From NCBI GenBank assembly GCA_045546155.1, contig JAZQCG010000012.1, forward strand, positions 477 through 64,476: a stretch of DNA of 64,000 nucleotides. Direction: 5' to 3'. This document shows positions 4,177-57,156 of this stretch, piece after piece; within the stretch, counting starts at the first letter, position 1; each line of letters opens with the position of its first letter. Below the pieces are notes generated by a model. The model ran no database searches. It had not been told where the DNA came from and saw only the letters and a list, made by a program, of their open reading frames with translations. A program made the position numbers and the translations under genes. The DNA is from Candidatus Enterousia sp. (GTDB lineage Bacteria > Pseudomonadota > Alphaproteobacteria > Rs-D84).

Positions 4177-4803
4177 ATGTTGCTAAAAGAATTTATTCAG
4201 AAAATTCGTGTCGCGCGTGCAGAAAGAAAGATTACATGGAACGAGCGTTGGTGGCACGATGGAATAGATATAGAAAATTGTTTCATAAATAAAGATACGG
4301 GTTATCTTAGTGTGTGCCGTAACTTTCAAGAATGTAATATGGTGCATTGTAAAAGTTATCCTGCGCATTTGAAATATGGTTATCAATTGGCCAGGGAACG
4401 CGAGATAAAAGAAGGGAAAACAGGTAATTGGTTGGCGTATCTGGTTAAAACGCCGGTTGCACAAATGCGTTCAGATTGGATGGAATATAAAAAATTGGGG
4501 TCTAAATTGCGTTGTGCGGGAATTTATAAAGGCAATATGTATCGGCGGATTTATAAATGTTTTTTGAATCCTGATAGTGTGACATTTAATGAACGTTGTA
4601 TTGTTGATTATAACGGGCGTGATGATAAAGGTAATTTGGAACACCGCCAGTATAAATGTCCATCTTTTGTAAATGGGGCACGTTGTGGTGGATGTAGTGT
4701 ATCCAAAAGAAAGTCAGAATATGATGTGGCATGTATGGAATATGAAAAACTGAAATTGAAAAAAAGTGTTTTCTGGCAAGAAAAATTTGACAATGTAAAA
4801 TAA
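4177..4803 (+). CDS. Cys-cluster protein (P3) that looks like a P1-like plus P2-like fusion, hypothetical
   Basis: 208 aa with GAGGGG SD. The N-half (ARAERKIT..CFINK..C..C..C) resembles P1. The C-half (CPSFVNGARCGGC...KLKKSVFWQEKFDNVK) resembles P2. Confidence 0.55.
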   Translation: MLLKEFIQKIRVARAERKITWNERWWHDGIDIENCFINKDTGYLSVCRNFQECNMVHCKSYPAHLKYGYQLAREREIKEGKTGNWLAYLVKTPVAQMRSDWMEYKKLGSKLRCAGIYKGNMYRRIYKCFLNPDSVTFNERCIVDYNGRDDKGNLEHRQYKCPSFVNGARCGGCSVSKRKSEYDVACMEYEKLKLKKSVFWQEKFDNVK

Positions 4804-4822: not shown

Positions 4823-5836
4823 ATGGCGCACCAGTTCTTTTTTAATTCTTATATCTTGGATAATCTGCCGGCGCCGCGGACTGGATTTGATGTTGTCCAA
4901 GATGTGTCTGAACCACGCCTGCGGATGTATATTACCAGTCGCGGGGTAAAAACTTTTTTTGTTCGTAAACGTGTAAATGGTAAAGACAAGCGGATTATAA
5001 TTGGTAACTATCCAGATGTTGATATCGAAGATGCGCGCAGCGCGGTGCAATCTGTGCTGGATACCGCGATGCAAAAACCGGTTACGCGTCGTCGTAAAAT
5101 TACATTTCAAAAGTTTATGGATTTATATCTGGCAAAGTGTGTGCGCCGTGGCGAAGATTCGCGGACCAAACTGGAACGTGCAATCAAGCGACATCTGGAA
5201 GGATTGTTTGAAAAAAATGTTTCTGAAATAACATCTGATGATATTCAAAATGTAATTGCGAATATTGATGGATTGGCCATTGCGGGGCGTATGCAAGAAT
5301 TGTTGCAAAGTGTGTTTAAATTTGCGCTGGAAAATGGATATGTGAAAACCAATCCGGTTGTTGATATTGCGCGTGTTGAACAAAAGCGTCGTGTGCGTCC
5401 GCTAAACAGAAATGGATTATTGCGGCTGATTTCGTCAATTGAAAAAATGGATGATTTAAATTTGCGTGCGGCGTTCTTGATGTTGATTTATGGCTTCGCA
5501 CCAAAGTCAAAGATATTTGCAATGCGCTGGGAAGATTTAGATTTTAATCACGATATGTGGGACAATCGCCCTTTGTCAGATCGCGCAATTGTTTTATTGC
5601 AAGATTTACCGCAATCAAGTAACTGGGTATTTCCGGGACGGGGTGGTTTTCATATTATCGATCCGCGTGTTGCGTGGGGGCGTGTTGCACATGCGGCGGG
5701 TATCCCAAATTTGACCATGGATGACGTTTACAAGTTTTTATTTCGGCAATTGCCATGGGCGCCAGACAAGGCGGATTTCCGCGATAATATGAACGTCTTG
5801 TTGGACGAGTTGTTGGAAACAGAATGCCAATTATAA
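4823..5836 (+). CDS. P4-type tyrosine-integrase-like protein with no recognisable catalytic residues
   Basis: The N-terminus matches the integrase arm-binding fold (LRMYITSRGVKTFFVRKRVNGKDKRIIIGNYPDVDIEDAR). The C-terminal region keeps ..MRWEDLDF.. but I cannot find the R, HxxR or terminal Y motifs. Confidence 0.6.
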   Translation: MAHQFFFNSYILDNLPAPRTGFDVVQDVSEPRLRMYITSRGVKTFFVRKRVNGKDKRIIIGNYPDVDIEDARSAVQSVLDTAMQKPVTRRRKITFQKFMDLYLAKCVRRGEDSRTKLERAIKRHLEGLFEKNVSEITSDDIQNVIANIDGLAIAGRMQELLQSVFKFALENGYVKTNPVVDIARVEQKRRVRPLNRNGLLRLISSIEKMDDLNLRAAFLMLIYGFAPKSKIFAMRWEDLDFNHDMWDNRPLSDRAIVLLQDLPQSSNWVFPGRGGFHIIDPRVAWGRVAHAAGIPNLTMDDVYKFLFRQLPWAPDKADFRDNMNVLLDELLETECQL

Positions 5837-6327: not shown

Positions 6328-7578
6328 ATGAAAAGAGTTGTCATTACCGGTATGGGAATTGTATCGCCGGTGGGTACTGGTCTGGATGCGGCATGGCAAA
6401 ATGTTGTTGCCGGTAAATCGGGTGTTCGTAAAATTACTGAATTCGAAGTTGATGATTTAGCATCCCAGATTGCAGGTATCCCAGAACGTGGGGAAGGGGC
6501 CGGACAATATAATCCAGACAGTGTCATTGAACCACGTGAACAACGCAAGATGGATAAATGTATTATTTATGGCATGGTTGCGGCAGATGAAGCAATCAAA
6601 GATGCGGGTTTGGTTGATTATGCCGGTGACAAAGAACGCATTGGCGTTTCAATCGGCAGTGGTATTGGTGGGTTTGACACCATCTATGAAAATTGTATTG
6701 AATTGCATACGGGCGGTCCACGTCGGGTCAGTCCTTTCTTTATCCCAAAGGGTATTATTAATATGACGGCGGGACATGTTTCAATTAAGTATGGGTTCAA
6801 GGGGCCAAACATTTCCGTTGTAACAGCATGTGCAACCGGTGCTCATTCAATTGGAGAAGCCGCCCGCTTAATCAAATATGGTGATGCCGATATTATGATT
6901 TGTGGTGGAACTGAAGGCGCAGTCAGTCGAATCGCCTTGGCGGGATTTTCGGCAATGCGCGCATTAAGTACACGCAACGATGCGCCAGAAGCCGCATCAC
7001 GACCATGGGATAAAAATCGTGATGGTTTTATCATGGCCGAAGGTGCGGGTATTTTGGTTCTGGAAGAATATGAACACGCGGTTGCGCGTGGCGCAAAAAT
7101 CTATGCTGAGGTGGCTGGATACGGCCTGTCGGGGGATGGATATCATATCACAGCGCCCGCCCCAAATGGTGAAGGTGGCAAACGTGCAATGATAGCGGCA
7201 TTAAAAGATGCAGGACTGAACCCAGCGGATGTTAACTATGTTAATGCGCACGGTACATCGACCGGTTTGGGCGACGTTGGTGAATTGGCTGCGGTCCAGG
7301 AATTGTTTAATGGTACAGACGTTTGTATGTCATCAACAAAGTCTGTGACGGGACACTTGTTGGGGGCCGCCGGTGCGGTAGAGGCAATATTCTGTGCCTG
7401 TGCGATTCGTGATGGCATTGTTCCGCCAACAATCAATTTGGATGAACCCGAAGATGCAGTTGGTGATTTCAACCTGGTGCCACATACGGCACAGAAGCGC
7501 GAAGTAAATGTTGCGCTTAGCAATTCGTTTGGGTTTGGTGGGACAAACGCCAGCATCGTCCTTAAAAAAATTAAATAA
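6328..7578 (+). CDS. fabF: 3-oxoacyl-ACP synthase II
   Basis: 416 aa KAS II: active-site context VVTACATG, HGTSTGLGD, GHLLGAAG, NSFGFGGTNAS. Confidence 0.96.
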   Translation: MKRVVITGMGIVSPVGTGLDAAWQNVVAGKSGVRKITEFEVDDLASQIAGIPERGEGAGQYNPDSVIEPREQRKMDKCIIYGMVAADEAIKDAGLVDYAGDKERIGVSIGSGIGGFDTIYENCIELHTGGPRRVSPFFIPKGIINMTAGHVSIKYGFKGPNISVVTACATGAHSIGEAARLIKYGDADIMICGGTEGAVSRIALAGFSAMRALSTRNDAPEAASRPWDKNRDGFIMAEGAGILVLEEYEHAVARGAKIYAEVAGYGLSGDGYHITAPAPNGEGGKRAMIAALKDAGLNPADVNYVNAHGTSTGLGDVGELAAVQELFNGTDVCMSSTKSVTGHLLGAAGAVEAIFCACAIRDGIVPPTINLDEPEDAVGDFNLVPHTAQKREVNVALSNSFGFGGTNASIVLKKIK

Positions 7579-7590
7579 AAAAATCAATTA

Positions 7591-7686
7591 TAATAATTCA
7601 TCTAAAAACAAATCGGGAATCTCATGTAGCGACTTGTACACTACGATTCCCGATTTCTTTTTATCTAAATCATTCTAATTGATTTT
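7591..7686. repeat. Structured intergenic repeat, copy 1 of 3 (long hairpin with conserved apical TGTAGCG..TACAC, flanked by ATCTAA boxes)
   Basis: About 86% identical to 32311-32405. Stem aaatcgggaatc../..gattcccgattt. Lies between the convergent fabF and 7723-8235 genes. Confidence 0.75.
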
Positions 7687-7722: not shown

Positions 7723-8235
7723 TTATTTCTTTTTCTGAACAAAGTGTTTATATAAAAATCGTTGGATTTTTTGCCGTGGCCCTTCGCCAAATGCAAAGAA
7801 GTTTTTTGGTATGTCGGGATATCGATATATTTTGATGTACCCCAATTCTTCACCACGCAGTAATTTTTGACCCACGTCTGGAATTTGGATTGCTTTGATT
7901 GGTTTAACTGTTTCTGCGGAAACATATTCGATTACTGTAACAGATTTATTAGGGTGCAGTTCTGTTAATTGAAATGATTCTGGGGGTAATACATAGATTA
8001 CACCAGATGTGCCACAATATGTCTTTTCAAAAGAACCAGGAAAGGATTCAACTATTGTTGCGGTGTCGTTTTCAATGCCAAAATAATTATTGCCTTTGTT
8101 ATAAACGGCATATCGCAGGGCGGATGCAAAATTTGGTGTGGCAAAAACATATGGCGTGGACAGATAGCCATCCAGATGCGGTCTGATTTCTGGTAAATTT
8201 TGAACCGTGGTTCCGTGATATAATTCCATAGACAA
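7723..8235 (-). CDS. Hypothetical protein (170 aa)
   Basis: Uninterrupted ORF in an otherwise empty interval. No family recognised from the translation. Confidence 0.5.
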   Translation of the reverse strand: MSMELYHGTTVQNLPEIRPHLDGYLSTPYVFATPNFASALRYAVYNKGNNYFGIENDTATIVESFPGSFEKTYCGTSGVIYVLPPESFQLTELHPNKSVTVIEYVSAETVKPIKAIQIPDVGQKLLRGEELGYIKIYRYPDIPKNFFAFGEGPRQKIQRFLYKHFVQKKK

Positions 8236-10229: not shown

Positions 10230-10306
10230 CGGAGTGTAGCTCAGCCTGGTAGAGCGCTACGTTCGGGACGTAGAGGCCGCTGGTTCGAACCCAGTCACTC
10301 CGACCA
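10230..10306 (+). tRNA. tRNA-Pro (anticodon CGG)
   Basis: Manual cloverleaf: acceptor CGGAGTG/CACTCCG, D arm GCTC/GAGC, anticodon arm CTACG-TTCGGGA-CGTAG (U33, CGG, G37), T arm GCTGG-TTCGAAC-CCAGT, encoded CCA. 77 nt. Confidence 0.9.
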
Positions 10307-10401: not shown

Positions 10402-11385
10402 ATGGTTGATGAAAAAGTAAATTTTGAATTAGTGCCAGAAATCGACTGGGGCGATGAATACGAAGGGGTGTCTGGGCGGGCCACCACGGTTGTGCGTATG
10501 GAATCGTTGGATGGGAGTTTTGTTGAAAAATTTGTAAGTGAAACGGGCCCGTATGCAATGCGGTGGCCAATGTGGTTGGCAAAACAAATAGATGCCGCGC
10601 AAATTACAAATGATTTAAGGGCCAAACATAATCCGCACTATGATGTGCCAAAGACTTTTATTTCCCATGGTCATGTACGTGAACAGTATGTTGATGGGAT
10701 TAATGCAGATGAATACACGGGTAATAAGGCTGATTTAATTCCAGCAATTGCACATTTTATTAATGATATGTCGGAATTGCGCCCGCTTAGGTTTGTTCGT
10801 AATCATGGTGTAAATGGGCTGCAAATGGAAAATATTGCGGATCTGGACAAGCTATTGGACAAGGTGCGTAAATACAATGTTGTTCGTGAAGAGAACTTAA
10901 AATTAATTCGCGATGTATTTGAATTTTTGCGTGATATACCTGAAAACAATTATTTTGTTTTTGGACATAATGATTTGCATCCTGGAAATGTGTTGGTGAA
11001 TCCAAAGACTGGACGTATGTCTGTGATTGATTTTGAATTGTCGGGGTATCAACCAATGTCTTATATGCTTTATACACAAATGCAAATGGGGCCGCCCGTG
11101 TGGGATTATGTAAATAAATTGCCGCGCGTTGTTAACCCGAAGTTGCGCTGGAATTATGATGCACGTATTGCAGAACTCTATAATTTTATGCACAGGGTGA
11201 TGCTGAATATAGAAAAGTCCTATGTGTATGACAAAGATATGGCGGCAAATATTTTGTCGGATATTAATATGCTTTGCAATCCGGTTGTGCGAAAAAAATT
11301 CGCAGCACTTAAACTAAAGTATCAAGATACCTTGGTATGCGACGAGATGTCGTTGGTGCCGGTTTCGCATTATGAACGTGGGTAA
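10402..11385 (+). CDS. Protein-kinase-like-fold phosphotransferase (APH/choline-kinase type), paralog A
   Basis: Catalytic loop HNDLHPGN (HxDxxxxN) followed by VIDFELSGY. Clearly paralogous to 12865-13857 along its length; both end in LVP[VM]SHYE. Confidence 0.7.
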   Translation: MVDEKVNFELVPEIDWGDEYEGVSGRATTVVRMESLDGSFVEKFVSETGPYAMRWPMWLAKQIDAAQITNDLRAKHNPHYDVPKTFISHGHVREQYVDGINADEYTGNKADLIPAIAHFINDMSELRPLRFVRNHGVNGLQMENIADLDKLLDKVRKYNVVREENLKLIRDVFEFLRDIPENNYFVFGHNDLHPGNVLVNPKTGRMSVIDFELSGYQPMSYMLYTQMQMGPPVWDYVNKLPRVVNPKLRWNYDARIAELYNFMHRVMLNIEKSYVYDKDMAANILSDINMLCNPVVRKKFAALKLKYQDTLVCDEMSLVPVSHYERG

Positions 11386-12846: not shown

Positions 12847-12864
12847 TTATGGGGGGCTGTGACG

Positions 12865-13857
12865 ATGGATACTAGAACCTTTCAAATTGTTACACCAGAT
12901 GATGCCGCAGAGCAGGTTGATTTGCCATCAGGACATGCAACGGTTGTAAGAAAAATGGAAACATTAACCGGTGATGTTGTTGTTAAGGAAATAAACAAAA
13001 AAACAGGTAAGTTTAATGTTGCAGAGGCGGAACGTGAAGTATGGTGGTTAAATGCCCAGAAAAAAGCTAAGGTAAATTCAGAAAAGATAAGAGAAAAAGG
13101 CAGTTCTGTATATTTTGTTCCAAAAACCTATGTTTCACATGGCAAGGTTCGTGAAGAATTTGTTTCTGGTAATCGTTGGCGCGATGTGTTTAAAGGGCTT
13201 TCAGAACAGGATAAGATGTGGGCGTTTAAAGCGGTGGCAGAATTCATTAATGATATGTCTGAATTATATCCTATTAAATATGATGATAAAGTGCGCAGTG
13301 TGCCTTTTATTCCTATAAAAGGGCCAGAAGCATTGGCCAAAGGGTTGGAAACATTAGATGAAAAATATATTTCCAAAGAAGATAAGCAGTTGATTCAAGA
13401 TATTTATGAATATTTAAGTCGTGTTCCTGAAAACAGAGTATTGGTTTGGGGGCATAATGATTTACATCCTGATAATATCATCATAGACCTGGAAAAAAGA
13501 CAAATTGGTATCATAGATTTTGAATTGTCGGGGTATGGTTCGGCATTTTGTTCTATGTACAGGGGGATGATGGATTCGCCGGATTTTTGGGATTATGTGA
13601 ACAAATTGCCACGTTCAAAAAATCCAGATTTTTCATGGAACTTTGTGTCAGAGCATCGCGATTTGCATCGTTTTTTGCGCTGGGCATATAAGGAAGTTGT
13701 AGAAAGTGGCCAAAGTTTAGAAAGTGTTAGCGATAAGCTGAGGGCGGAGTGTGAAAGGGTTCGATATATTTTTGCGCGTGCTAAGATAAAATCCAACACG
13801 CCTGCTGAAAAGCAGAAAATGCCATTGGTTCCGATGTCGCATTATGAAAAGGATTAA
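12865..13857 (+). CDS. Protein-kinase-like-fold phosphotransferase, paralog B
   Basis: HNDLHPDN and IIDFELSGY motifs. ATG at 12865 with GGGGGG SD preferred over GTG at 12859. Confidence 0.7.
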   Translation: MDTRTFQIVTPDDAAEQVDLPSGHATVVRKMETLTGDVVVKEINKKTGKFNVAEAEREVWWLNAQKKAKVNSEKIREKGSSVYFVPKTYVSHGKVREEFVSGNRWRDVFKGLSEQDKMWAFKAVAEFINDMSELYPIKYDDKVRSVPFIPIKGPEALAKGLETLDEKYISKEDKQLIQDIYEYLSRVPENRVLVWGHNDLHPDNIIIDLEKRQIGIIDFELSGYGSAFCSMYRGMMDSPDFWDYVNKLPRSKNPDFSWNFVSEHRDLHRFLRWAYKEVVESGQSLESVSDKLRAECERVRYIFARAKIKSNTPAEKQKMPLVPMSHYEKD

Positions 13858-40821: not shown

Positions 40822-42597
40822 ATGAAGCCAATTTATCGCATTTTGTTTTTTGTAATGTGCGTGTTGCCGGCTGTGGCTGGGGCAGCGCCTGTTGCCACGA
40901 CCGCAGGCAGTAATTTAACTGCGTATAACCCAAATTCAATGGGGTCGATTAATAATAATCAATGGAATTCTATGATGAACAGTCGTACGGGCTCGGATTC
41001 TGCACCGACGGCTGATTTTGGTAACTGTAATGCATTAATCATGCGATGTGCCCAGCCGAAGTGTGCATCGGGTGGATGTACGTCGATGGATGTAACGTTA
41101 CCGATTGTTAATGGATGTGTGAATTCTAATAACGCGTGTAAGCAATACGGTAATGATTTGGCGCAATCTATTGCGGCGCAAATCGTTGCGAATTCTAATG
41201 CAAAGGCCAGTCAGGCGGCCCAGGATGCTGCGGCAGCTGCGGCGGCCCAGTCCAGCCAGCAAATGGCCCAGTTGCAGCAAGAAATGAATATGCAGATGCA
41301 GCAAATGCAACAACAGATGCAGATGCAAAATCAACAGACTGTTTCGCAATTACAGGCCGCACTGGAAGAACAAAAACAGATTGCCGCTGCCGCCCAGCAA
41401 CAGGTGGCAGAAGCGCAGATTGCACAAAACGCAGCGCAATCATCTGGGTTAACGTTGGCCCAAGAAGATGCTGCATCACGTGGTATTGATTCAGATTTAA
41501 TTGTGCGCGAACAGGTAACAGGCCAGATTATGTCCAAGTTGGAAAATGCGGAAACCGCATTGAAAACGTTGCGTGACACGATGAAGGATGCGTTTGAATA
41601 TGCGGGCTGTGATTCCAAGGGAAATAATTGTAACAGTCCAAAACGTGTCAAGGTATTTAAGCAAAAGGCGATGGGATTCTTTGAACCGTATAACGATGTT
41701 TTGGATGAATTGTATGATGCCTTGATTACAGCCCAGGCGGTTGGTGTTGATATTACAGATATTTACATGATGCTTAATGGTTCGTGTAATGTTTGGGGTG
41801 AATATTTGTGTACTGGGGCGGTTGAGCTGAAAAAGGGCAATGAATCCACAGGTTTGTACGAGTGGCCAAGGTACGACAAAAGCAGTTGTCCAACCGATGG
41901 TGGAAAGTCTAAGGCATATGGTACGGTTATTGGTGGACATGAATGTTTTTATGGTGGTGTGATTCCGCCCGAAGACAGTCGTAATTGTACATTAAATCGT
42001 ACCTTTACAACGGCGGATGAACAGGATGATTTAAAGCGTGATTGGTTGGAAGGCGAGTCGGCTGATAATACAATTCGTATCGGTTGTGCATCCAGTGCGT
42101 TGGAAAATTCTGTGCTTTTCCGTAATCGTAAAAAGCAGGCTTCGATTGATATTGAAACACTGGAACGCATTATTGAACAAGATGCGCCGCAAACATTTGG
42201 ACGGAAATATGCCGGCAAAAAAACAACTCAGCCAGATCCAGATGGCGTGAAATATTGCGCGGTTGGTGTTGGTGGTGTAGAACGTCTGGAACAGGCGGTG
42301 GCGCTGAAAAAATTACCAAAGGGTGCAATTTGTATTGATGAAAATGATTTGATGAAGAAACTGGAAAATGATGACTATGTTGTTGCAGTCGCCAGTCAGG
42401 CAGAATCAGTTGGTGAATATGCTAAGGTGGATTGTGAACATAACGATTGGAAGGGCAAGCCGCGCTGCATATGTCAGGAAAGTGGTGGTAAATACTATAA
42501 CGATGGTACGTGTGCTTGTGGTGGTGATCTGGTTGAATCCGGTGGTAAATGTGTGCCAAAAAAGAACAGTGTTTCAGTGACTCTGGGGGGGGGGTGA
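40822..42597 (+). CDS. Cys-rich secreted protein with Gln-rich coiled segment, family member 2 (3' end interrupted at a G10 tract)
   Basis: Start at MKPIYRILFFVMCVLPAVAGA (ATG 40822). CNALIMRCAQPKCASGGC; the QQMAQLQQEMNMQMQQMQQQMQMQNQQ stretch; C-terminal CxC modules. Stops at TGA right after the G run. Confidence 0.75.
   Translation: MKPIYRILFFVMCVLPAVAGAAPVATTAGSNLTAYNPNSMGSINNNQWNSMMNSRTGSDSAPTADFGNCNALIMRCAQPKCASGGCTSMDVTLPIVNGCVNSNNACKQYGNDLAQSIAAQIVANSNAKASQAAQDAAAAAAAQSSQQMAQLQQEMNMQMQQMQQQMQMQNQQTVSQLQAALEEQKQIAAAAQQQVAEAQIAQNAAQSSGLTLAQEDAASRGIDSDLIVREQVTGQIMSKLENAETALKTLRDTMKDAFEYAGCDSKGNNCNSPKRVKVFKQKAMGFFEPYNDVLDELYDALITAQAVGVDITDIYMMLNGSCNVWGEYLCTGAVELKKGNESTGLYEWPRYDKSSCPTDGGKSKAYGTVIGGHECFYGGVIPPEDSRNCTLNRTFTTADEQDDLKRDWLEGESADNTIRIGCASSALENSVLFRNRKKQASIDIETLERIIEQDAPQTFGRKYAGKKTTQPDPDGVKYCAVGVGGVERLEQAVALKKLPKGAICIDENDLMKKLENDDYVVAVASQAESVGEYAKVDCEHNDWKGKPRCICQESGGKYYNDGTCACGGDLVESGGKCVPKKNSVSVTLGGG
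42585..42594 (+). repeat. Homopolymeric G10 tract (candidate slipped-strand switch)
   Basis: Counted directly: ctct-GGGGGGGGGG-tgattg. Confidence 0.9.
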
Positions 42598-42727
42598 TTG
42601 CAGCGCTGCTGGTGGTCATTATGAAAATATGCAGTGCAAATGTGGGGCGTTACCTCTTAATCCAATGACGCAAAAGTGTGAGAAGACTGCGTTTGGAGAA
42701 GTGGTTAAAAATAAATTTGGGAAATAA

Positions 42728-43462
42728 ATGAAAAAGCTGTTTGGTTTTTTATTGTGTGTTTCGGTCCTGGTGATTCCGGTGGTGTCGGGGGCGGCTGTGC
42801 TTAATGGGTGTGAAGACGAAAATAATGAGTTTATTACCCCTGAATTAGCACTGTGTTCGACACATGTGTTTAATATTCGTGGTGTAAAAAATCCAGATAA
42901 CGAAGCAGATCGGGGATATATGCGTGATGTTGTTGCGTTAAAAACAACTATTATGACCCAGCAAATGAATAAACAGTACGAATATCTGGAATCGATGATT
43001 CGTCGTTTCAAAACCCAGTTAGAAAAGGCTATATTGACAACGCGCCTGCAGGCATCGGGTGCGGGGGCGGATGAATCTTCGTCGTCGGGTGGTGGATCGT
43101 CGTCTTTTAAATCAAATGATCGAAGCATATTTATTTCTGGGGTTGAAAATTGCGATACTAAATTGTTGCCGTCGGATGTTTTGAGTTGTCTTAGCAGTAA
43201 TTTGACGACAATTTCCAATATGTCGATTAATGGCAGTGAAGTTACATCAGAGGTTCGTAAGCAATTTGGAAATGATTATAAGTTGCTGACACGGACGTAT
43301 GATGTAACTGACGCTAAATGTGCTACGACTAAAATTGATTGTACCAAGGATTCAGATCTAAGAAAAAAACAAAATTTCCAAGAGTGTATGGATAATGCGC
43401 GTTCATGTATTCGTGACAAGATGTACAAGTTGAATTTGGAAGAACAACGGAACAGAAAATAA
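42728..43462 (+). CDS. Secreted Cys-containing protein (244 aa), family-associated
   Basis: Signal peptide MKKLFGFLLCVSVLVIPVVSGA. The ATG abuts the TAA of the out-of-frame extension of the preceding gene. Confidence 0.65.
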   Translation: MKKLFGFLLCVSVLVIPVVSGAAVLNGCEDENNEFITPELALCSTHVFNIRGVKNPDNEADRGYMRDVVALKTTIMTQQMNKQYEYLESMIRRFKTQLEKAILTTRLQASGAGADESSSSGGGSSSFKSNDRSIFISGVENCDTKLLPSDVLSCLSSNLTTISNMSINGSEVTSEVRKQFGNDYKLLTRTYDVTDAKCATTKIDCTKDSDLRKKQNFQECMDNARSCIRDKMYKLNLEEQRNRK

Positions 43463-48322: not shown

Positions 48323-50455
48323 ATGACGACACAGAAAGAATTTTTTAAACGATTTATCCCATTTTGTATGGTGATGGGGGCTGTGTTTGTTATGGGGGAT
48401 GCGTATGCGGCGGCGGTTGCAAAGCGTGGTACGGTTTCCCGTGCCCAGGTTGCAGTTCGTGCACCGGTGGCGGCAAAAAATGTTGCCCCCACGGCCCAAG
48501 AAGAGCCAGAAGAAGTTATCGAAGAAGATGTTGTAGTCGAAGAATCAGAACCGTTTGAATTCGAAGATCGTACCAGTCAATTTGATGATGCAATTGGAAC
48601 GGTGGCAACATCGGTGGAATCTGCGGATGATGAATTGGCAGAAATGATACGTCGCCAGCGTGCAGCGGCGGATGCGGCGGATGCGACGACCGCGGTAAAG
48701 GCAAATGTAAAAAAAGCGACGGGGTCGGGGCAAAATGCGTGCGACGTGGGATTGCGTAAATGTATGCAGGCAAAATGTGGTGCAGATTTTGGAAAATGTG
48801 CCGGCGATACAGATACGATTTGGGGTGATAAACTGGATGCGTGTCGTCGTGATTTGAAGTGCAGTGGGCATGAATATTCATTATTTGTGACGGAAATCAA
48901 AGCGGATCGTGATGCAAATGCAGAACTGGCCAATTTTAACGCGATTATAAATTGTGGTAATAAATATAATTCATGTATCTTGGCGGAATGTGGGGCGACG
49001 TTCTCTAAATGTTTGGGCAAGTCCGAAGGGGACAAGGCTATTGCGAAATGTAAAAAAATTCAAAATGACTGTGTTAAGTTGGATGGTGGCCTGGCGTCGC
49101 GTATGATGGATGTGTTTGCCGGTGTTCGCCAGGATGCAGAAAAGAAAATTCAACGTGATGAACAGCGTCTTTATGATTTGCGTGATGAAATGGAATCTGT
49201 GTGCAGTCGTATGGGCGCGATGTTTGATACGCGTTCGTTGGATTGTGTTTATACGGTTAATTTCTTTGCGGATAATGCAACCACACCATATGCATCGAAA
49301 AAAGCATATGCCGGTGGGATGTTTAGTTGTGAGCCGGGCTGGTTCGGGATAGATGTTACGACGTTCAAAGAAAATGCTTATCGCTTAACACGTGCACAGA
49401 CGGCGGCATCATCGGCAATGTTGGGGTCGGGGATTGGTATGGCGGCTGGTGCGATTACATCGGGTGCGATTGATCGGGCGCTTGAAACACAGAAGGCTAA
49501 AAAAGAATTAAAGGAAGCCCAAGAAGGCGACAAAGCGGATAAAAAGGCAGACGAGAAAGAAAAAAAAGGTGAGCCCGATAACAAGGATGGCAATGATGAC
49601 AACAAGCTAGGCGCAGCCGGTCGTCGTTGTACCAAGGCGGGCGGAAACTGGGAAAATGGTGCGTGTGTCGGTGCGAAGTGTGATGATGGCGAAGAATGGA
49701 ATTCGGAAAAGAATAAGTGTGTCAAGAATAAGGGGGCGGACGAGCCTGAAAAATCCAGCGAAGAAGACGATAAGAAGGATAAAGAAGAAGAATCTTATGA
49801 AGATGTCTCTGCGCGTGTAATGTGTGATAGTGCGGATGGTGAATGGGATGAAAAGAAAAAAAAGTGTAAATGCAAAGACGAAGGTGGCAAAACCATAAAC
49901 ACAAAAAATCCGAAAGAATGCTTTATTGAGACTGAAGAAGAAATAATAGAAGAAGATGATTTAGATTCGGCAGCGGTTGCTTGTGATTATCAAGGTGGGA
50001 AATGGGAAAATGGTACATGTTCGTGTACGAACGCTAAAGGAAAAAAGATTAAGACCTTGAATCCGCTGAATGATTGCGTAAAGCCAAGCGAAGCTGGTTC
50101 GGCGAATGGTGGTGAAAAAAGGGGGGCAGAATCGGCAAAGGACAAAAAGAAAGTACTTAGTGCTACACAAAAGAAAGCCTGTACAGCCAGAGATGGAACG
50201 TTGAATGCAGATGCCACCATGTGTTCATGCAAAGATCGCAATGGTAGGGATATTGATACCAATAATCCGATAAACAAATGCGTAAAACAAAATGATTCAG
50301 GCCAACAAAATAAAAACGTAGCGGAAAGGAAAATAGATACTGCTGGCCAGACAGTTGAGGAAGCGGCGATATCACAAGGGCCTAAGAGTGAAATAAAGTC
50401 GCGTGAAGATATGGAAGCAGAACGCGCCGCCAAAAATGCAAGCCAATCAGAATAA
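48323..50455 (+). CDS. Large Cys-rich secreted protein (710 aa), family member 5, with four tandem CxC modules
   Basis: CDVGLRKCMQAKCGADFGKC, CGNKYNSCILAECGATFSKC, a Gly-zipper (MLGSGIGMAAGAITSGA), a Lys/Asp/Glu linker, and 4 copies of C-x4-GG-x-W-(E/D)..C-x-C..NP..C. Confidence 0.8.
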   Translation: MTTQKEFFKRFIPFCMVMGAVFVMGDAYAAAVAKRGTVSRAQVAVRAPVAAKNVAPTAQEEPEEVIEEDVVVEESEPFEFEDRTSQFDDAIGTVATSVESADDELAEMIRRQRAAADAADATTAVKANVKKATGSGQNACDVGLRKCMQAKCGADFGKCAGDTDTIWGDKLDACRRDLKCSGHEYSLFVTEIKADRDANAELANFNAIINCGNKYNSCILAECGATFSKCLGKSEGDKAIAKCKKIQNDCVKLDGGLASRMMDVFAGVRQDAEKKIQRDEQRLYDLRDEMESVCSRMGAMFDTRSLDCVYTVNFFADNATTPYASKKAYAGGMFSCEPGWFGIDVTTFKENAYRLTRAQTAASSAMLGSGIGMAAGAITSGAIDRALETQKAKKELKEAQEGDKADKKADEKEKKGEPDNKDGNDDNKLGAAGRRCTKAGGNWENGACVGAKCDDGEEWNSEKNKCVKNKGADEPEKSSEEDDKKDKEEESYEDVSARVMCDSADGEWDEKKKKCKCKDEGGKTINTKNPKECFIETEEEIIEEDDLDSAAVACDYQGGKWENGTCSCTNAKGKKIKTLNPLNDCVKPSEAGSANGGEKRGAESAKDKKKVLSATQKKACTARDGTLNADATMCSCKDRNGRDIDTNNPINKCVKQNDSGQQNKNVAERKIDTAGQTVEEAAISQGPKSEIKSREDMEAERAAKNASQSE

Positions 50456-50472
50456 CATACGGGTGAATATTG

Positions 50473-53298
50473 ATGAAAAAAATATTATTTGGAATTTTTG
50501 CTGTTGTTGGTTTGTTCGCTGGTGATGCGTACGCTGGGAACATGTGCGAATATAATGGTGGGCGGCATGCAGATGGCTATACATATCCTGCTGGGTATGA
50601 ACCGCATACCACAGATCATCCGGTTTGTAAAAGAGAGGGTGGCGAAGGTGTTAAATTCTGTTTTATTCGTTGTGATAATGGTACATGGAGATTTGAAAAA
50701 GCAACAGTATGTGAAACAGACAAGGGATATTCGCTGCAAGATGGTAAATGCGTAAAGCCAGAGCCCGAAGCATCGGCGGCAAGTGCCACCGCAACAAAGA
50801 AGGTTGCAGGTTGTTCGTGTCGAAATCATGTTGCCGGTGGTGCATGCGCTGAGGCGGGGATAGTAAATAAAAAATGTGTGCCGACTAAATGCCCAAAAAC
50901 TGTGACGGAAAAAGGAAAAACGTACAACACATATATGGTGCGCAATGGCAAGGGCGGTGCAGTTCTATATTTTTGCCATAATGATGCACTGTGCGAGCTT
51001 GGCAATGCCAAGAAAAAGTTGAGTGATTTTCCGCAATATGCCCTTAATACCTGGCAAGAGGGTAATGTTTGGTACACTGATAAAAAGTGTAAATGTGCGG
51101 ATTCTACGCGTGTGCTAAAAAATGGAAATTGTGTATGTGGTGGCGATACGCCGATTGATAACAATGGTACGTGTATCAGTCAAGCACACAAAGATTGTAT
51201 TGATACAAATGGTACATGGACGGGTTCTGCATGTGATTGCGGCAGCAAGGTTTTAAATGGCACAAAATGCGAGGAGAAAAGCGAACCACCAGTTAGTCAG
51301 CCCGTAGAACAGTCTGTGGCCCCGGTTGAAGAAGATAAACAAGAGCCCCAACCAACAGAATTTAACATATCTGGAAGTATTGTTGATCAAGATAATGAAC
51401 CATTGATTGCGACTGTTACGTTCGGAAACTGGGGGGTGACTGCGGGGGTAGATGGTAAATTTTCAACGACATACAAAGGCAACTCGGATGACATGTTGGA
51501 AATTAGTCATGTGGGATGCACACCGCAAAAGTTTAAGCCAACGGATTTAAAGAATAAAACCATTAAATTGGATTGTGTAACCGAGATAGAAGAAGTGATG
51601 ATTGTCGGGTGTAAAGGGGATGTAGCCAATGGTATCAAGACCAAGATATTGATTGATGATCAATGTTACCCCAGTGAATGTGTTACACCGGGCTGGAAAT
51701 TGACGGGATCTGGTGTTGATGCACAATGTGTTAAGGAAAAGGAATCAGAAGCCGCAGTTGTTCCAGGTGATGACGAAAATGAAGAGCCAGCACCAGAAGA
51801 TGACACACCAGAAGAAGTTGTAGACGAAGAGCCAGAAGAGCAGGAATACGATCCGGAACGCGAACAGCGTATCGCAGATGCCCAGGCAAAATATGATGCC
51901 GCCAAGGCCAATGAACAATCATTGGGTAATCGTATGTTGGGTGCGGCATCTATGGGGGCTATGGGGATTGGTGGTATGATGGTTGCGTCCAGTTTGTCGG
52001 AACAAAAAGCCGATGACGAAGCTGAAATTGATATGAAGGCATACCTGGCAACGTTCAGATGTGCATATGGCAATGCCAAGAATATCAAGGGCGGCGAAGT
52101 AAATATAGAATTGCCAGGGGCGTCTGAATTAATCCCGCTGTATGCAGAATACGTGGCGTTGGCAAATGACTTAAAATCGCGCAAAGCTCAATTGGGAATC
52201 AAGGCGGGTATTGAATCTGAAAAGATTTTGGATTCTGCGACAACGGGCCTTTATGACGATGTGGGAACTGGGGTAACATCGGGGGCGTATGCGTCATTAG
52301 CGCGCGCGTTGCAAGACCCAGATGGCGAAGATGCCAAAATGTGGAACGAACAGAAAGACAAAACAGCCAAGAATTTGAAAACCGGGGCGATAACCGCTGG
52401 GGTTGGTGCTGCGGTTGGGATTGTTGGTAATATTATTAGCAAAGCTGTAGCCAATAAGAAATATAAGTCTTTGGATGAATTGGAAAATAAAATTTCTGCA
52501 GGGACGACGGCGACTACAAAATGTCCATCGCAGTCAACTGGGACATATCCGAACTGCATATGCAATAGCGATAAAGAATATAATGCAAACAAAAATGAAT
52601 GTCGTGCCTGTACAGGTGGTCAGAAAATTGATAATACGGATGGTTATGCAAAATGCGTTTGCATGGGTGATACACCGTTGTGGGATACAGAACGTGGTAG
52701 ATGTATTGCACGTCCAAATTCATGTAATAATGGTTTTGTAAAAGGCGAGGATGGTAAATGTGATTGCCCAGCTGAACGGGGGATGACGGTACAAGGTGGC
52801 AAATGCGTAATAATTGAAACAGTTACACGTTCGTTATTTTCAACAACAGATGTGTCGACGGCGACGTTGGATGCGGGGCATTTATTTGAAATTGGTTCTG
52901 CTGAAATTCAAGCTTCGGCACAAGAGGCCTTAACAGATTTTGCAGATGGATTAAAGAAGGAGGCTTTATCGGATTGTAAGATTTCTATTATTGGATATAC
53001 AGATCCTGTGGGTAGCGCAGACGCAAACCAGCGTTTGTCAGAACAGCGTGCCAATGCAATTAAAACATTTTTAGAATCTTTGCAAGCTTATAAAGAAGTT
53101 GTTACAAGTACTTCAGCAACTGGTAATGGTGAAAATAATTGTACGTGTGGTGTTGGGGCAATTCCAGCTGGCCAAGAAAACAGTGCAGACTATAAGTTTT
53201 GTGTTGGCAAGGCGGGAACATATCCTGTTTCTGGTAACAACAGATATGCACCGTGTCGTCGTGTTGTAATTGAAGCATCATGTACAAAGGGAGATTAA
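50473..53298 (+). CDS. Large Cys-rich envelope protein (941 aa) with carboxypeptidase-regulatory-like fold and C-terminal OmpA-like domain, family member 6
   Basis: Signal peptide; CxC modules; FNISGSIVDQDNEPLIATVTFGN..DGKF (CarboxypepD_reg-like); acidic linker; Gly-zippers; C-terminal FEIGSAEI...IIGYTDPVGSADANQRLSEQRANAIKTFL (OmpA_C-like). Confidence 0.8.
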   Translation: MKKILFGIFAVVGLFAGDAYAGNMCEYNGGRHADGYTYPAGYEPHTTDHPVCKREGGEGVKFCFIRCDNGTWRFEKATVCETDKGYSLQDGKCVKPEPEASAASATATKKVAGCSCRNHVAGGACAEAGIVNKKCVPTKCPKTVTEKGKTYNTYMVRNGKGGAVLYFCHNDALCELGNAKKKLSDFPQYALNTWQEGNVWYTDKKCKCADSTRVLKNGNCVCGGDTPIDNNGTCISQAHKDCIDTNGTWTGSACDCGSKVLNGTKCEEKSEPPVSQPVEQSVAPVEEDKQEPQPTEFNISGSIVDQDNEPLIATVTFGNWGVTAGVDGKFSTTYKGNSDDMLEISHVGCTPQKFKPTDLKNKTIKLDCVTEIEEVMIVGCKGDVANGIKTKILIDDQCYPSECVTPGWKLTGSGVDAQCVKEKESEAAVVPGDDENEEPAPEDDTPEEVVDEEPEEQEYDPEREQRIADAQAKYDAAKANEQSLGNRMLGAASMGAMGIGGMMVASSLSEQKADDEAEIDMKAYLATFRCAYGNAKNIKGGEVNIELPGASELIPLYAEYVALANDLKSRKAQLGIKAGIESEKILDSATTGLYDDVGTGVTSGAYASLARALQDPDGEDAKMWNEQKDKTAKNLKTGAITAGVGAAVGIVGNIISKAVANKKYKSLDELENKISAGTTATTKCPSQSTGTYPNCICNSDKEYNANKNECRACTGGQKIDNTDGYAKCVCMGDTPLWDTERGRCIARPNSCNNGFVKGEDGKCDCPAERGMTVQGGKCVIIETVTRSLFSTTDVSTATLDAGHLFEIGSAEIQASAQEALTDFADGLKKEALSDCKISIIGYTDPVGSADANQRLSEQRANAIKTFLESLQAYKEVVTSTSATGNGENNCTCGVGAIPAGQENSADYKFCVGKAGTYPVSGNNRYAPCRRVVIEASCTKGD

Positions 53299-53379: not shown

Positions 53380-56300
53380 ATGAAATATATCAGAATTTTG
53401 TTTCTTAGTTTGTTTGTTTTCCCATTTGGGGCGCATGCTGCGGGTACACAAAATGACTTTATGGTGGCGGCGCAATTATTGGCGGCGGCGCGTAATGCCG
53501 ATATTCAACAGGTTCAGGTGCTGGTTAATAATGGGGCTGATATTAACTATGTTGATGCGACGGGATTATCGTTGGTGTGTACAGCATTGATGAACAATGA
53601 CACACGTGCAGCCCAGATTTTGCAAATGTATGGCGCAGATGCATCGCAATGTGATCGCCAGATTAAAAAGTATAATAATCGAACAAAGCCAAAGCCCAGT
53701 GGGGGACTGTTTAGCGGGCTGTCTTCCGCCCAGAGTTTGACATTAGCGGCGGCGGGGGCCGCCGTTGTCGTAGGGGGGCTGTTATTATTAACAGATGTCT
53801 TTGACCCGGGTAATGATAATGAAAATTCTAACCTGTCGGGTGGCAATCGGCCCGGTTCTGGGGGAAATGGTGGCAGCACTGGGGGGACGGCAGGGCTAAC
53901 CGTGCCATACAGTCCAGCATATTTGTATGGGGATGTTTTAAAGCCAGGGGATAAAACGCAATATAATGCTAATTTAGCATCATGGAATCCATCCCAGGGC
54001 GGTATTCGTCAGGCAGACTTTAACTATTTTAGACCAACGGTTGAACCGGGAATTAGTAATTTTTTAACGGATAATATTCTGTTGCCGGTACAAAATTATT
54101 TGCTGATGATGCATGGCTATTCTGCGTTTGCAAACAAATATTTAGGCCAGGAAATATTTAGAAATTCAGCCAGTAATTTTGCCCCATATCCAATGGAAAA
54201 TTCCGCAGATGGTGGCAGACCGGTTCGTGTTGGCTTAGTAACGGCAAATGGTGTTAATCCGACTGGTTCAGCGGCGCGTGGTGATGAAAATAGTGTTGGT
54301 ATTTTATGGGCATCTGGGTATGGTGCGGGTGCTGATATGGACAGGGTTGATAAATTTTTGAACTATAATAAGCCTGCGAACGGTGTGCTAGGGGATGAAG
54401 TTTCAAGTATTGGATTTGATTTGTCGGGTACTGGGACGGCAATGAACCCATTTGCAAGTTCGTATGATAGCGCATTGATGAAAATCGTAGCAGGTTGGAC
54501 GGGCGACCGCGGCGGATATGAATACGAAGACAAGGCATATGAATATGGCGACTTCTGGGGATTTGTTCCCAATGGGCAGGTTGGTGTATTTAAAACCGGT
54601 AATGGCCAGGCGTTTGTAAATATCCCAAATGCAACCGATGGAGCGGTTCTGGGGACAAGCAGTTCTGCTGATGAAATTAAGGTTAACGATACAATCGTAT
54701 TAAATGGCATCACGTACAAGATGTCTTTGGCGGTGGATTCTGCGGTTACCAATCCAACAATAACAGTAAATGGTCAAACGTATAAATTGCCCGTCGAAAG
54801 TACTATGTTGCGTGGTGTGTGTGTCGGTGATGCAAATACGTGCAAGGATGTTTCTGATATTGCAGTGTACAAGGGGACGGATGGCTATTTTTATGTTAAC
54901 ACCACAGGGGGAAATAGCCCAGATGCGGTATACGTCGTAAAGGAAAATAATATTTATGCGCAAAAAGAATTGCAGGATGCTGATTATGCAAATTTTGAAG
55001 CGATGTTTAATGCTAAATCTGTTAGTGATGTGGTTGTAAATGTGTCGGTTATTCAGCCGTCACGTGCCATTGATTATGTGAAAATGTCTGATATGCCACA
55101 ATTGATGGATTTATTAGAAGCGTCCGCCGAAGATGTGTATTTGGGACTGGTTAATGATATTTACGATCGCGAAGGCGACCAAGATGTTTCCCAGCGGAAT
55201 TTTGCAAACCAATTGTTGGGTGGTTATAACGCCAGTTCGCCAATTATGGTTATGCCGGCGGGGGAATTTGTGTATGGATACGGCGAAGGAAAATCTTTGT
55301 CTGTATTGGATGCTACGTTTGAAAACTATGCGCCGGTTGCGTATCCTAATCTGGAGCACTTGTTTATGACTGTGGTTGCGGTACGCCATAAATCAGGTAC
55401 AGACAAAGCAAATTCTATTGAAGGCTATGGTAATGGTGTTGGCAATGATTATGGACCGTTAACATTGTCATATTGGACCGACTTTAATGGAACATTGGAC
55501 GATACGTCGGATGATATTACATATAAATCACGTAAATGTGGCATTGCTGGTTTGGGTATCAATGGAATTGACCCATGGTGCTTTGCCGCAGCAGGTGCAA
55601 ATTCAGAAATGGCAACAGCAGCGGCGGCGGGGTCGGTTGCAGCTGTGAAGGCGGCATTTGCAAAAACACAAATGTCGAATTCTGAGTTGTTTACGTTATT
55701 GGCGTTGACGGCGGATGGACCATATTTGGGAACTAATGACGATGGTGTTGCGTATACAAAACAGAGTTTGGCAAAGTATTTGCAAAATATGTATGAATTG
55801 CCCCCAGAATATTACGAAGATGACTTTGATTTAAATACAGATGCAGGAGCGGCTGGATACTTAAATGCCTTTGCAGAGGTTTATGGCTATGGATTAATTA
55901 ATCTGGAACGTGCAATGACACCGAATAAAACCCTGTATTTCTTTGATGGAAATCAGATTGTATCCGGCGATAAAAATGCATATTGGGGTTCAACAAAAAG
56001 TACCAGTGTGCGTGCGTCCAGTGTTTTGAATCTGGCGGGGGCGCGTGTAAGTGCATCTGTGTTTGATGTGCTGGAAAGTGTAGATGGAACAATGCGTTTA
56101 CCGCGTGTGTGGAAAAATGAATTTGCGCTGGGGAATACGACCAAACGTGGCCTTTATATGGGGGATGTGTTGGGGGATTTCAAAGTACGCAAAGACGCAC
56201 CATCCATAACAGAAGTTGGAAATATGTCATTGTCGATGGCGATGTCGGAACGCGCATATGTTGATAATATGGGGGGATTGGATAATTTGTCATTGGCATA

Positions 56301-57156
56301 TTCAAATGATAATTGGAATATGCGCGCATCATATCAGCACTATTTCACAGATGGTATGTCGCGCTTTAATGGTATGGCGAACCCAGTATTAAATTTGGCA
56401 TCTAATGTTGTGATGACGGGGGCAGAATATAAATCTGGGAATTGGTCGTTCGGTGGTCGTGGATATTCGGGCCTGGTTACGGATGAAAGTTTGCTGGAAA
56501 ATGATCCAACGATTTCGGCGCAATATATGCCAGGACGTCTGGGACGCATGTCCGGCGCAGAAAGCCATGTTGCATATGGCAATGATAAATTTGGATTTAC
56601 TGCATCGGTTGGTGCAGCACGCGAAAGTGATACATTGCTGGGGGCGGTGACGGATGGGTTGTTGGCCTTGGGCGCGGGGGATACAACATATGTTGATGTT
56701 GTGTCGCGATATGATTTTTCGGACGACGTTGGATTTACTGCACGTGCAACATTTGCACGCACAACATCTGATGCATCAGGGGCGCTGATTTTGGGGTTGA
56801 CCGATATTGAATCTAATTCATTTGCGTTTGGTGCAAATATTGGGAATTTTGAATTTACAGTTGCACAACCGCTGGCAATCACAGATGGGGCACTGCAATA
56901 TGCCCACGCAGAATATGATGTGGTTGAGGTTGCCAAAGGACAATATGACCTGGTGGTGCGGGATGCAGGGGTGGCTGATTTATCAATGCGTCCAGATAAT
57001 CGTGAAGTGCGCTTTACTGCGACATATCGTCATCGTTTTGGTGAATTCACAGATGGTGCATTGGGATTAGTTTATCGTGTAAATCCAAATCATACGGATG
57101 ATTTTGGTAATGAATCAATATTCATGATGAAATTGGCGCATCGTTTGGGAATCTGA
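53380..57156 (+). CDS. 1258-aa protein: signal peptide, ankyrin repeats, hydrophobic segment, large passenger-like region, C-terminal beta-barrel-like domain
   Basis: ANK: AARNADIQQVQVLVNNGADINYVDATGLSLVCTALMNNDTRAAQILQMYGADAS. Hydrophobic: LTLAAAGAAVVVGGLLLL. The last roughly 300 aa show alternating amphipathic strands (NLSLAYSNDNWNMRASYQHYF ... EVRFTATYRHRF ... IFMMKLAHRLGI). Confidence 0.7.
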   Translation: MKYIRILFLSLFVFPFGAHAAGTQNDFMVAAQLLAAARNADIQQVQVLVNNGADINYVDATGLSLVCTALMNNDTRAAQILQMYGADASQCDRQIKKYNNRTKPKPSGGLFSGLSSAQSLTLAAAGAAVVVGGLLLLTDVFDPGNDNENSNLSGGNRPGSGGNGGSTGGTAGLTVPYSPAYLYGDVLKPGDKTQYNANLASWNPSQGGIRQADFNYFRPTVEPGISNFLTDNILLPVQNYLLMMHGYSAFANKYLGQEIFRNSASNFAPYPMENSADGGRPVRVGLVTANGVNPTGSAARGDENSVGILWASGYGAGADMDRVDKFLNYNKPANGVLGDEVSSIGFDLSGTGTAMNPFASSYDSALMKIVAGWTGDRGGYEYEDKAYEYGDFWGFVPNGQVGVFKTGNGQAFVNIPNATDGAVLGTSSSADEIKVNDTIVLNGITYKMSLAVDSAVTNPTITVNGQTYKLPVESTMLRGVCVGDANTCKDVSDIAVYKGTDGYFYVNTTGGNSPDAVYVVKENNIYAQKELQDADYANFEAMFNAKSVSDVVVNVSVIQPSRAIDYVKMSDMPQLMDLLEASAEDVYLGLVNDIYDREGDQDVSQRNFANQLLGGYNASSPIMVMPAGEFVYGYGEGKSLSVLDATFENYAPVAYPNLEHLFMTVVAVRHKSGTDKANSIEGYGNGVGNDYGPLTLSYWTDFNGTLDDTSDDITYKSRKCGIAGLGINGIDPWCFAAAGANSEMATAAAAGSVAAVKAAFAKTQMSNSELFTLLALTADGPYLGTNDDGVAYTKQSLAKYLQNMYELPPEYYEDDFDLNTDAGAAGYLNAFAEVYGYGLINLERAMTPNKTLYFFDGNQIVSGDKNAYWGSTKSTSVRASSVLNLAGARVSASVFDVLESVDGTMRLPRVWKNEFALGNTTKRGLYMGDVLGDFKVRKDAPSITEVGNMSLSMAMSERAYVDNMGGLDNLSLAYSNDNWNMRASYQHYFTDGMSRFNGMANPVLNLASNVVMTGAEYKSGNWSFGGRGYSGLVTDESLLENDPTISAQYMPGRLGRMSGAESHVAYGNDKFGFTASVGAARESDTLLGAVTDGLLALGAGDTTYVDVVSRYDFSDDVGFTARATFARTTSDASGALILGLTDIESNSFAFGANIGNFEFTVAQPLAITDGALQYAHAEYDVVEVAKGQYDLVVRDAGVADLSMRPDNREVRFTATYRHRFGEFTDGALGLVYRVNPNHTDDFGNESIFMMKLAHRLGI

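Follow-up and report, generated by a model that had tools for sequence, protein, structure and literature searches.

Results

A poly-G tract near the 3' end of a gene for a Cys-rich secreted protein

The 64-kb window analysed here, which is the whole stretch of Candidatus Enterousia sp. contig JAZQCG010000012.1 described above, carries on its forward strand an open reading frame (ORF), 40822-42597, whose 591-amino acid (aa) product terminates in ...VTLGGG because a run of ten G (G10) is followed directly by a TGA codon (Table 1). In the family to which the gene belongs, a signal peptide is followed by a conserved body, about 510 aa in length and containing a long coiled coil, and by a variable C-terminal extension that consists of zero to several small Cys modules. 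A sequence-only reading of the window had singled out the tract as its longest G/C homopolymer, and indeed no other homopolymer in the window, whichever the base, reaches a length of nine; the next longest G runs are two G7 (617-623 and 3327-3333), C runs of seven or more are absent, and 0.05 G10 runs would be expected per 64 kb under a model of independent and identically distributed bases.

The coordinates and frames given in that reading proved correct as well. With one G removed, the frame runs on beyond the tract as DCSAAGGHYENMQCKCGALPLNPMTQKCEKTAFGEVVKNKFGK, adds a Cys module of 43 residues and yields a 634-aa product ending in ...VTLGGGDCSAAGGHYENMQCKCGALPLNPMTQKCEKTAFGEVVKNKFGK*, with a TAA stop that abuts the ATG of the downstream gene; the junction peptide of this fused (G9) form is ...VTLGGGDCSAAGGHYENMQCK, also given as LGGGDCSAAGGHYENMQCK. 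With one G added, a hydrophobic tail of 25 residues, GGGVIAALLVVIMKICSANVGRYLLIQ*, is produced instead. Tracts of G9 or G12 would thus encode 634 aa including the module, G10 encodes 591 aa, and G11 or G8 would end in a short unrelated tail, so that a 1-bp change in either direction alters the product, as is characteristic of contingency loci. G10 lies inside an ORF and falls within the length range of slippage-prone G/C homopolymers (about 8 or more). Since the tract occupies codons 588-591 of 634, 93% into the gene, the truncated product retains 93% of the protein; a frameshift at this point changes the C-terminus while expression continues, which is how 3'-end repeats act in C-terminal phase variation.

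Table 1. Features of the gene in the window, and G tracts at the equivalent junction in other assemblies (L005, L168 and L169 are relatives of L004).
Sequence	Feature	Position	Strand	Basis or frame state
Window	ORF with G10; 591-aa secreted Cys-rich protein without last module	40822-42597	+	Translation; identical to NCBI protein P0121
Window	Predicted Sec signal peptide, MKPIYRILFFVMCVLPAVAGA / AP...	40822-40884	+	Hydrophobic core, then A-x-A-type site; read by eye
Window	Penultimate Cys module, in frame, CICQESGGKYYNDGTCACGGDLVESGGKC	42466-42552	+	Motif scan; AF2 pLDDT 82-89
Window	G10, proposed slippage tract	42585-42594	+	Sequence; out of frame, one G too many; in frame at G9
Window	TGA stop	42595-42597	+	Frame reading; reached only in the G10 (or G13, G7) frame
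Window	Terminal Cys module, 43 codons, +1 frame; Cys motif 42599-42679; stop TAA 42725-42727	42596-42727	+	Read only with G9 or G12
Window	Downstream 244-aa Cys-containing gene	42728-43462	+	ATG adjoins stop of in-frame reading
L002 (body 77% identical to the window's)	G9	1938-1946		Out of frame, one G too many; in frame at G8
L004	G9	2203-2211		Out of frame, one G too many, ends ...TSEGGG*; in frame at G8
L005	G8	4855-4862		In frame
L168, L169	G8			In frame
L035	G8	7638-7645		In frame
L065	G8	7813-7820		Out of frame, one G too few; in frame at G9
L069	G8	7752-7759		Out of frame, one G too few; in frame at G9
L070	G11	7870-7880		In frame

The closest strains indicate which of these C-termini is the authentic one. 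Proteins P0001 and P0122 (two Logan assemblies; 98% identical) are 634 aa long and in frame through the module, and the fused reading, already described in the sequence-only analysis, is therefore the authentic C-terminus; the window allele is in a "module off" state. The terminal module is likewise in frame in assemblies L001 and L166. At the junction, the close strains carry CTCT-GGGGTTGGG-TGATTGC (G4TTG3), nine bases without a homopolymer that encode L-G-L-G-D-C, from which the window differs by TT to GG and one extra G. The two nearest strains therefore look like locked-on alleles. For the contig studied here the NCBI annotation records the truncated 591-aa product (P0121, which came to us from a cluster look-up), and an exact-product look-up of the truncated ORF and of the downstream gene returned no further copies of this allele.

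Neither a promoter nor a terminator was found from the tract to the next gene, and folding of 42570-42700 revealed no stable RNA structure 3' of the tract (z = -1.2). In the G10 state translation stops 130 nt before the TAA/ATG abutment (42725-42730), and the downstream 244-aa gene might conceivably feel the tract length as well, through translational coupling or polarity; the abutment is not conserved in L004 or L005.

G tracts recur at the same junction in diverged lineages

Just 5' of the last Cys module, tracts of G8 to G11 were found in seven further assemblies representing six other Ca. Enterousia lineages, whose gene bodies are 51-77% identical (Table 1). Three of the seven tract-bearing lineages are in frame and four, including the window's, are out of frame, in both directions, and one lineage displays both states: the tract is G8 in L005, L168 and L169 but G9 in L004, and all four share the 15 bases flanking it on each side. 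Tract length thus differs among related strains, with on and off states both represented. In all out-of-frame alleles the module can be read without interruption up to a stop close to the next gene, with its C..GG..C-x-C..C motif kept; in L002, for instance, the last module (CCSTFGGQWQFGKCNC...) forms a separate ORF of 55 aa. The peptides encoded around the tracts are unrelated (VTLGGGDC, NANAGGVDY, TSEGGGNAQ, FPLAGGDKP, ISVGGGRLQ, AGSAGGGRAF and TTPGGGGNT), and because of this the conserved item is a nucleotide feature at a domain boundary rather than a peptide. In most other lineages one of the two out-of-frame readings runs into a stop directly after the tract. The earlier claim that tract length selects among three C-termini stands as far as the existence of the hydrophobic tail in the window is concerned, but not as regards its meaning: elsewhere the equivalent frame is unrelated or stops at once, and we regard the tail as probably incidental.

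A homopolymer error in sequencing or assembly, with a true tract of G9 and a gene that simply extends to 42727, would be in keeping with the 634-aa product of the two close strains, with the error-prone nature of homopolymers and with the origin of the window from a metagenome-derived contig. However, the tract differs from that of its relatives by TT to GG in addition to its length, which is no usual artefact, and the frame is disrupted in four of the seven tract-bearing lineages, whose assemblies are independent and stem from different projects; no consensus error rate for G8-G10 comes near to this share. That they are out of frame in both directions counts against a systematic sequencing bias, and an error would still leave the positional recurrence of the tract to be explained. 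We therefore consider an artefact quite improbable.

Out-of-frame alleles of both directions also speak against a programmed frameshift of fixed direction. Transcriptional slippage can occur at long homopolymers, with A/T runs as the best documented case, and slippage of RNA polymerase or +1 ribosomal frameshifting could in principle make both proteins from the G10 allele, in which case the length of the tract in the DNA would matter little; three of the out-of-frame alleles do need the same one-base correction. Nevertheless, a programmed signal would be expected to keep a single frame relation, and what is found is three lineages in frame, three one G too long and two one G too short. Neither this fixed relation nor a downstream stimulator, both hallmarks of programmed ribosomal frameshifting, is present, given the absence of a stable RNA structure after the tract, and the close strains are in frame despite the loss of the run. 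Recoding at the RNA level may thus be an added effect and is very unlikely as the main mechanism.

To judge whether the recurrence exceeds chance, we used as an unbiased survey set 80 reference-species loci (0.96 Mb), the source of L035, L065, L069 and L070. It contains 11 G/C runs of at least eight bases, and 4 of these 11 lie just 5' of the last Cys module of this gene, in a junction zone that makes up 5.5% of the surveyed sequence (binomial P = 0.002); three more junction tracts, those of L002, L004 and L005, come from outside the set. Glycine codons in the window are GGG in only 18% and GGT in 49% of cases, yet the Gly runs of the junction tracts are coded by GGG alone. Positional enrichment, codon choice and the lack of homology between the flanking sequences together point to maintenance of the tract. 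A genome-wide excess of long G runs, which we also considered, was rejected (8 observed versus about 22 expected under a simple run-extension model), and the signal is therefore positional and not global.

Shorter or interrupted runs occur at related positions. In L060 and L078, G7 runs stand in frame beside or inside the last module. In L077 (8007-8018) the junction reads G5CG3CG2 and the last Cys module is shifted by one base; this has the look of a degenerate tract that is frozen with the module off. A scan of metagenome contigs for further alleles, with a pattern of the tract flanks and a variable gap, gave 0 matches, and a second protein search seeded with the L070 (G11) protein produced no additional truncated relatives.

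Long runs were also noted at other places in the family and its cluster. In a distant orthologue, L120, an in-frame G8 (3132-3139) separates the signal peptide from an ADFGNCN motif; this 5'-end position is classical for whole-gene on/off phase variation. In L059, a C8 run (4530-4537) lies in frame in the upstream Cys-rich gene of the 967-aa type, just 5' of its last Cys-rich segment, and this may be a second cluster gene with a junction tract. Finally, C11 in L009 (5033-5043) and C8 in L070 (9910-9917) fall in apparently non-coding DNA of the same cluster in other species and could be tracts of the promoter type.

The terminal module is hypervariable

We compared body and module among three alleles of the window's species. 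Between the window and L001, the body diverges by 1.3% and the module by 9.0%, with a body pN/pS of 0.04 and a ratio of non-synonymous to synonymous (N:S) differences in the module of 11.5:0.5; for the window and L166 the respective values are 0.9%, 9.8%, 0.11 and 13:0, and for L001 and L166, both in frame, 1.4%, 5.3%, 0.02 and 7:0. Neighbouring genes are 0.7-1.2% divergent in the same three comparisons. All module alleles retain every Cys as well as the GG, C-x-C and NP positions. The excess of amino-acid change over neutrality is suggestive and not proven, the counts being small; the contrast with the body is very large. An imported divergent allele is an unlikely source of the 9% module divergence in this species, as the differences are almost all non-synonymous.

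In the L004/L005 lineage, bodies with 97-98% identity are followed by tails that share only 46-51%, a cassette-like replacement with its break at the tract; an alternative tail allele of this lineage has a junction of G5AG in place of a long run. The window contains no second, nucleotide-level copy of the module that could act as a silent (pilS-like) donor.

A further alternative is that G-rich Gly linkers drift towards homopolymers, one of which slipped, and that the module downstream is a decaying remnant with no regulated or reversible switching. Consistent with such a fixed, non-adaptive frameshift, the window's module has accumulated more substitutions than either other allele (about 9, counted along its branch), the L077 junction resembles a frozen off allele, and orthologues P0003, P0004 and P0006-P0008 have no C-terminal modules at all, so that the module is dispensable. 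Decay, though, would not be expected to leave every out-of-frame module free of stop codons and of Cys loss, and the excess of amino-acid change extends beyond the out-of-frame allele to the pair of in-frame ones (7N:0S). The exclusive use of GGG and the enrichment at one junction across lineages likewise argue for tract maintenance. While a fixed frameshift is possible for individual alleles, we find it rather unlikely as a general explanation.

Protein family and genomic neighborhood

The window is chromosomal (lepA, fabF, fusA, tuf, secY and a tRNA-Pro are present). More than 1300 homologues of the gene were found, and the named ones all come from gut "Alphaproteobacteria bacterium" or Candidatus Enterousia metagenome-assembled genomes (MAGs). 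Ca. Enterousia belongs to the order Rs-D84; these uncultured gut bacteria have genomes below 1 Mb and lack a tricarboxylic acid cycle and respiratory chains (PMC12306168). The protein has no Pfam family above the curated cut-off, sub-threshold low-complexity matches being the only ones; a profile search of the PDB gave no match, and Foldseek with the AF2 model (pLDDT 68) returned coiled-coil noise only. The sequence has a predicted signal peptide, the model shows a coiled-coil stalk and Cys modules, and the neighbouring genes encode Cys-rich secreted proteins, one with an OmpA domain; the protein may be surface-exposed.

The gene is part of a conserved, unbroken plus-strand cluster, 36952-57156, whose large secreted products are rich in Cys (4-7%) and match no Pfam family, apart from an OmpA C-terminal domain in 50470-53298 and ankyrin repeats in 53380-57156. 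Synteny of the cluster's upstream part (967-aa gene, DUF3419 gene, tract gene) is seen in L001, L003 and L166, and that of the downstream 244-aa gene in L001, L002, L004, L005 and L166. The terminal module had been described as a clean copy of the module repeated in the 48323-50455 protein. A likeness at the level of the motif C-x3-GG-x-[WY]-EN-x2-C-x-C...NP-x3-C is borne out (BLASTP E = 0.005 and 0.008), but "clean copy" overstates it; a weaker match exists in the 50470-53298 protein, too.

Elsewhere in the window, a phage-type integrase gene with Arm DNA-binding and integrase central domains (4823-5836) lies between lepA (1659-3452) and fabF (6328-7578) and may be what is left of an element that had integrated into this very small genome. 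The tRNA-Pro(cgg) is at 10230-10306, and yceG is flanked by two paralogous genes for APH/choline-kinase-like phosphotransferases (10402-11385 and 12859-13857).

Discussion

We propose that G10 is a slippage-prone contingency tract, at which slipped-strand length changes attach the last module of a surface protein or remove it, and we give this interpretation a probability of roughly 70%. According to the model, the tract sits at the boundary between the conserved body and the last small disulfide-rich module, and slipped-strand mispairing during DNA replication would add or remove a G. With 9 (or 12) G, the 634-aa protein would be made with its terminal module; with 10 G, as assembled, translation would end right after the tract and the module would be missing; the third frame would give a short, non-conserved tail that is probably meaningless. 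Since the module evolves very fast by amino-acid change, with its Cys/Gly scaffold kept, the switch would probably serve to expose or hide a tip that is under diversifying pressure from the host, the immune system, phage or a partner cell. The recurrence of tracts at one junction, the coexistence of both frame states, the G8 versus G9 polymorphism and the intactness of out-of-frame modules all support poly-G phase variation as first put forward from the sequence alone. We infer that the length changes originate in replication slippage, that they are frequent and reversible, that switching takes place within this strain, and that the protein is exposed on the surface.

Several observations nonetheless weigh against the proposed switch. 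The two closest strains have no homopolymer (G4TTG3), all comparison alleles of the window's own species being interrupted, and the window tract is separated from theirs by two substitutions and one insertion and so by no simple slip. The sequence-only reading had held that orthologues without a homopolymer at this junction would refute its proposal; this is the situation in these two strains but not in the six diverged lineages with G8-G11. In addition, about 90% of the reference species have no G run of seven or more at the junction, and no junction tract was seen in 80 metagenome loci of more distant orthologues, which confines the feature to a subset of Enterousia. Assemblies that share an allele mostly agree in tract length (G8 in three assemblies; G11 on three contigs with an identical protein), and switching is thus not so fast that every sample differs.

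A more far-reaching version of the contingency-tract model would see in this junction a conserved switch for the tips of Ca. Enterousia surface fibres, in a reduced-genome and probably host- or partner-dependent bacterium. Here the tract would delimit a terminal receptor-binding module under positive selection, swapped between strains as a cassette and stochastically shown or hidden; slippage at the RNA level might add to this, such that both isoforms would occur in single cells. The cassette swapping is suggested because the bodies in the L004/L005 lineage are nearly identical, the tails are not and the break falls at the tract. Taken as a whole, this extension is speculative, and we deem it unlikely.

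If the contingency tract indeed toggles a fast-evolving tip module, it points to the molecules that are under the strongest external pressure, and tract length together with the module allele offers a handle for tracking this in metagenomes. There is also a practical consequence: because NCBI records the truncated product, and the gene is split at this point in several other MAGs too, "frameshifts" at this junction should not be auto-corrected or written off as pseudogenes. To our knowledge, no switch of this kind has been described before in the Ca. Enterousia group.

Comparison with known systems

The closest parallel is the C-terminal phase variation by 3' homopolymers described in Helicobacter canadensis (Snyder et al. 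2010, PMC2823697), and C-terminal phase variation has been discussed for Neisseria gonorrhoeae as well (PMC5320596). As in H. canadensis, the homopolymer in Enterousia lies late in the ORF, and a change of its length replaces or truncates the C-terminus without abolishing the protein. The differences are that the Enterousia tract stands at a domain boundary, that the same junction bears a tract in several diverged species, that what is attached or removed is a discrete, hypervariable Cys module, and that the host is an uncultured alphaproteobacterium with a reduced genome. Furthermore, the length variation in H. canadensis was shown at the population level, in reads, and that in Enterousia is seen among assemblies.

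Poly-G/C contingency loci with G/C runs of about 8-11 are also familiar from surface-structure genes of Campylobacter jejuni, Neisseria, Haemophilus and Helicobacter pylori. Our locus resembles them in that on and off alleles exist among strains and interrupted tracts look like locked alleles. The classical tracts, however, usually lie near the 5' end or in promoters and turn a whole gene on or off, unlike the 3' tract of Enterousia, and those genomes typically have dozens of tracts, as opposed to the one within this 64 kb. Poly-G frameshifts occur in the polymorphic membrane protein (pmp) genes of Chlamydia, and repeats drive variable surface proteins in Mycoplasma and Ureaplasma, where the Mycoplasma mechanisms are often based on promoter spacers or inversion. 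These are host-dependent bacteria with reduced genomes in which simple repeats vary families of surface proteins, and Enterousia, with its reduced genome and probable dependence on a host or partner, would be similar; the protein families themselves are unrelated, and for that of Enterousia neither Pfam nor the structure searches gave a match. Programmed frameshifting and transcriptional slippage, as known from dnaX and insertion sequence (IS) elements, likewise obtain two C-termini from one gene by means of a slippery homopolymer. In contrast to these, the frame relation in Enterousia is not conserved, there is no stimulatory structure and in-frame alleles exist. The mechanism we propose is well known in itself; what is new is the lineage in which it is found, the conserved position of the tract at a module boundary across species, and its link to a terminal module that is diversifying.

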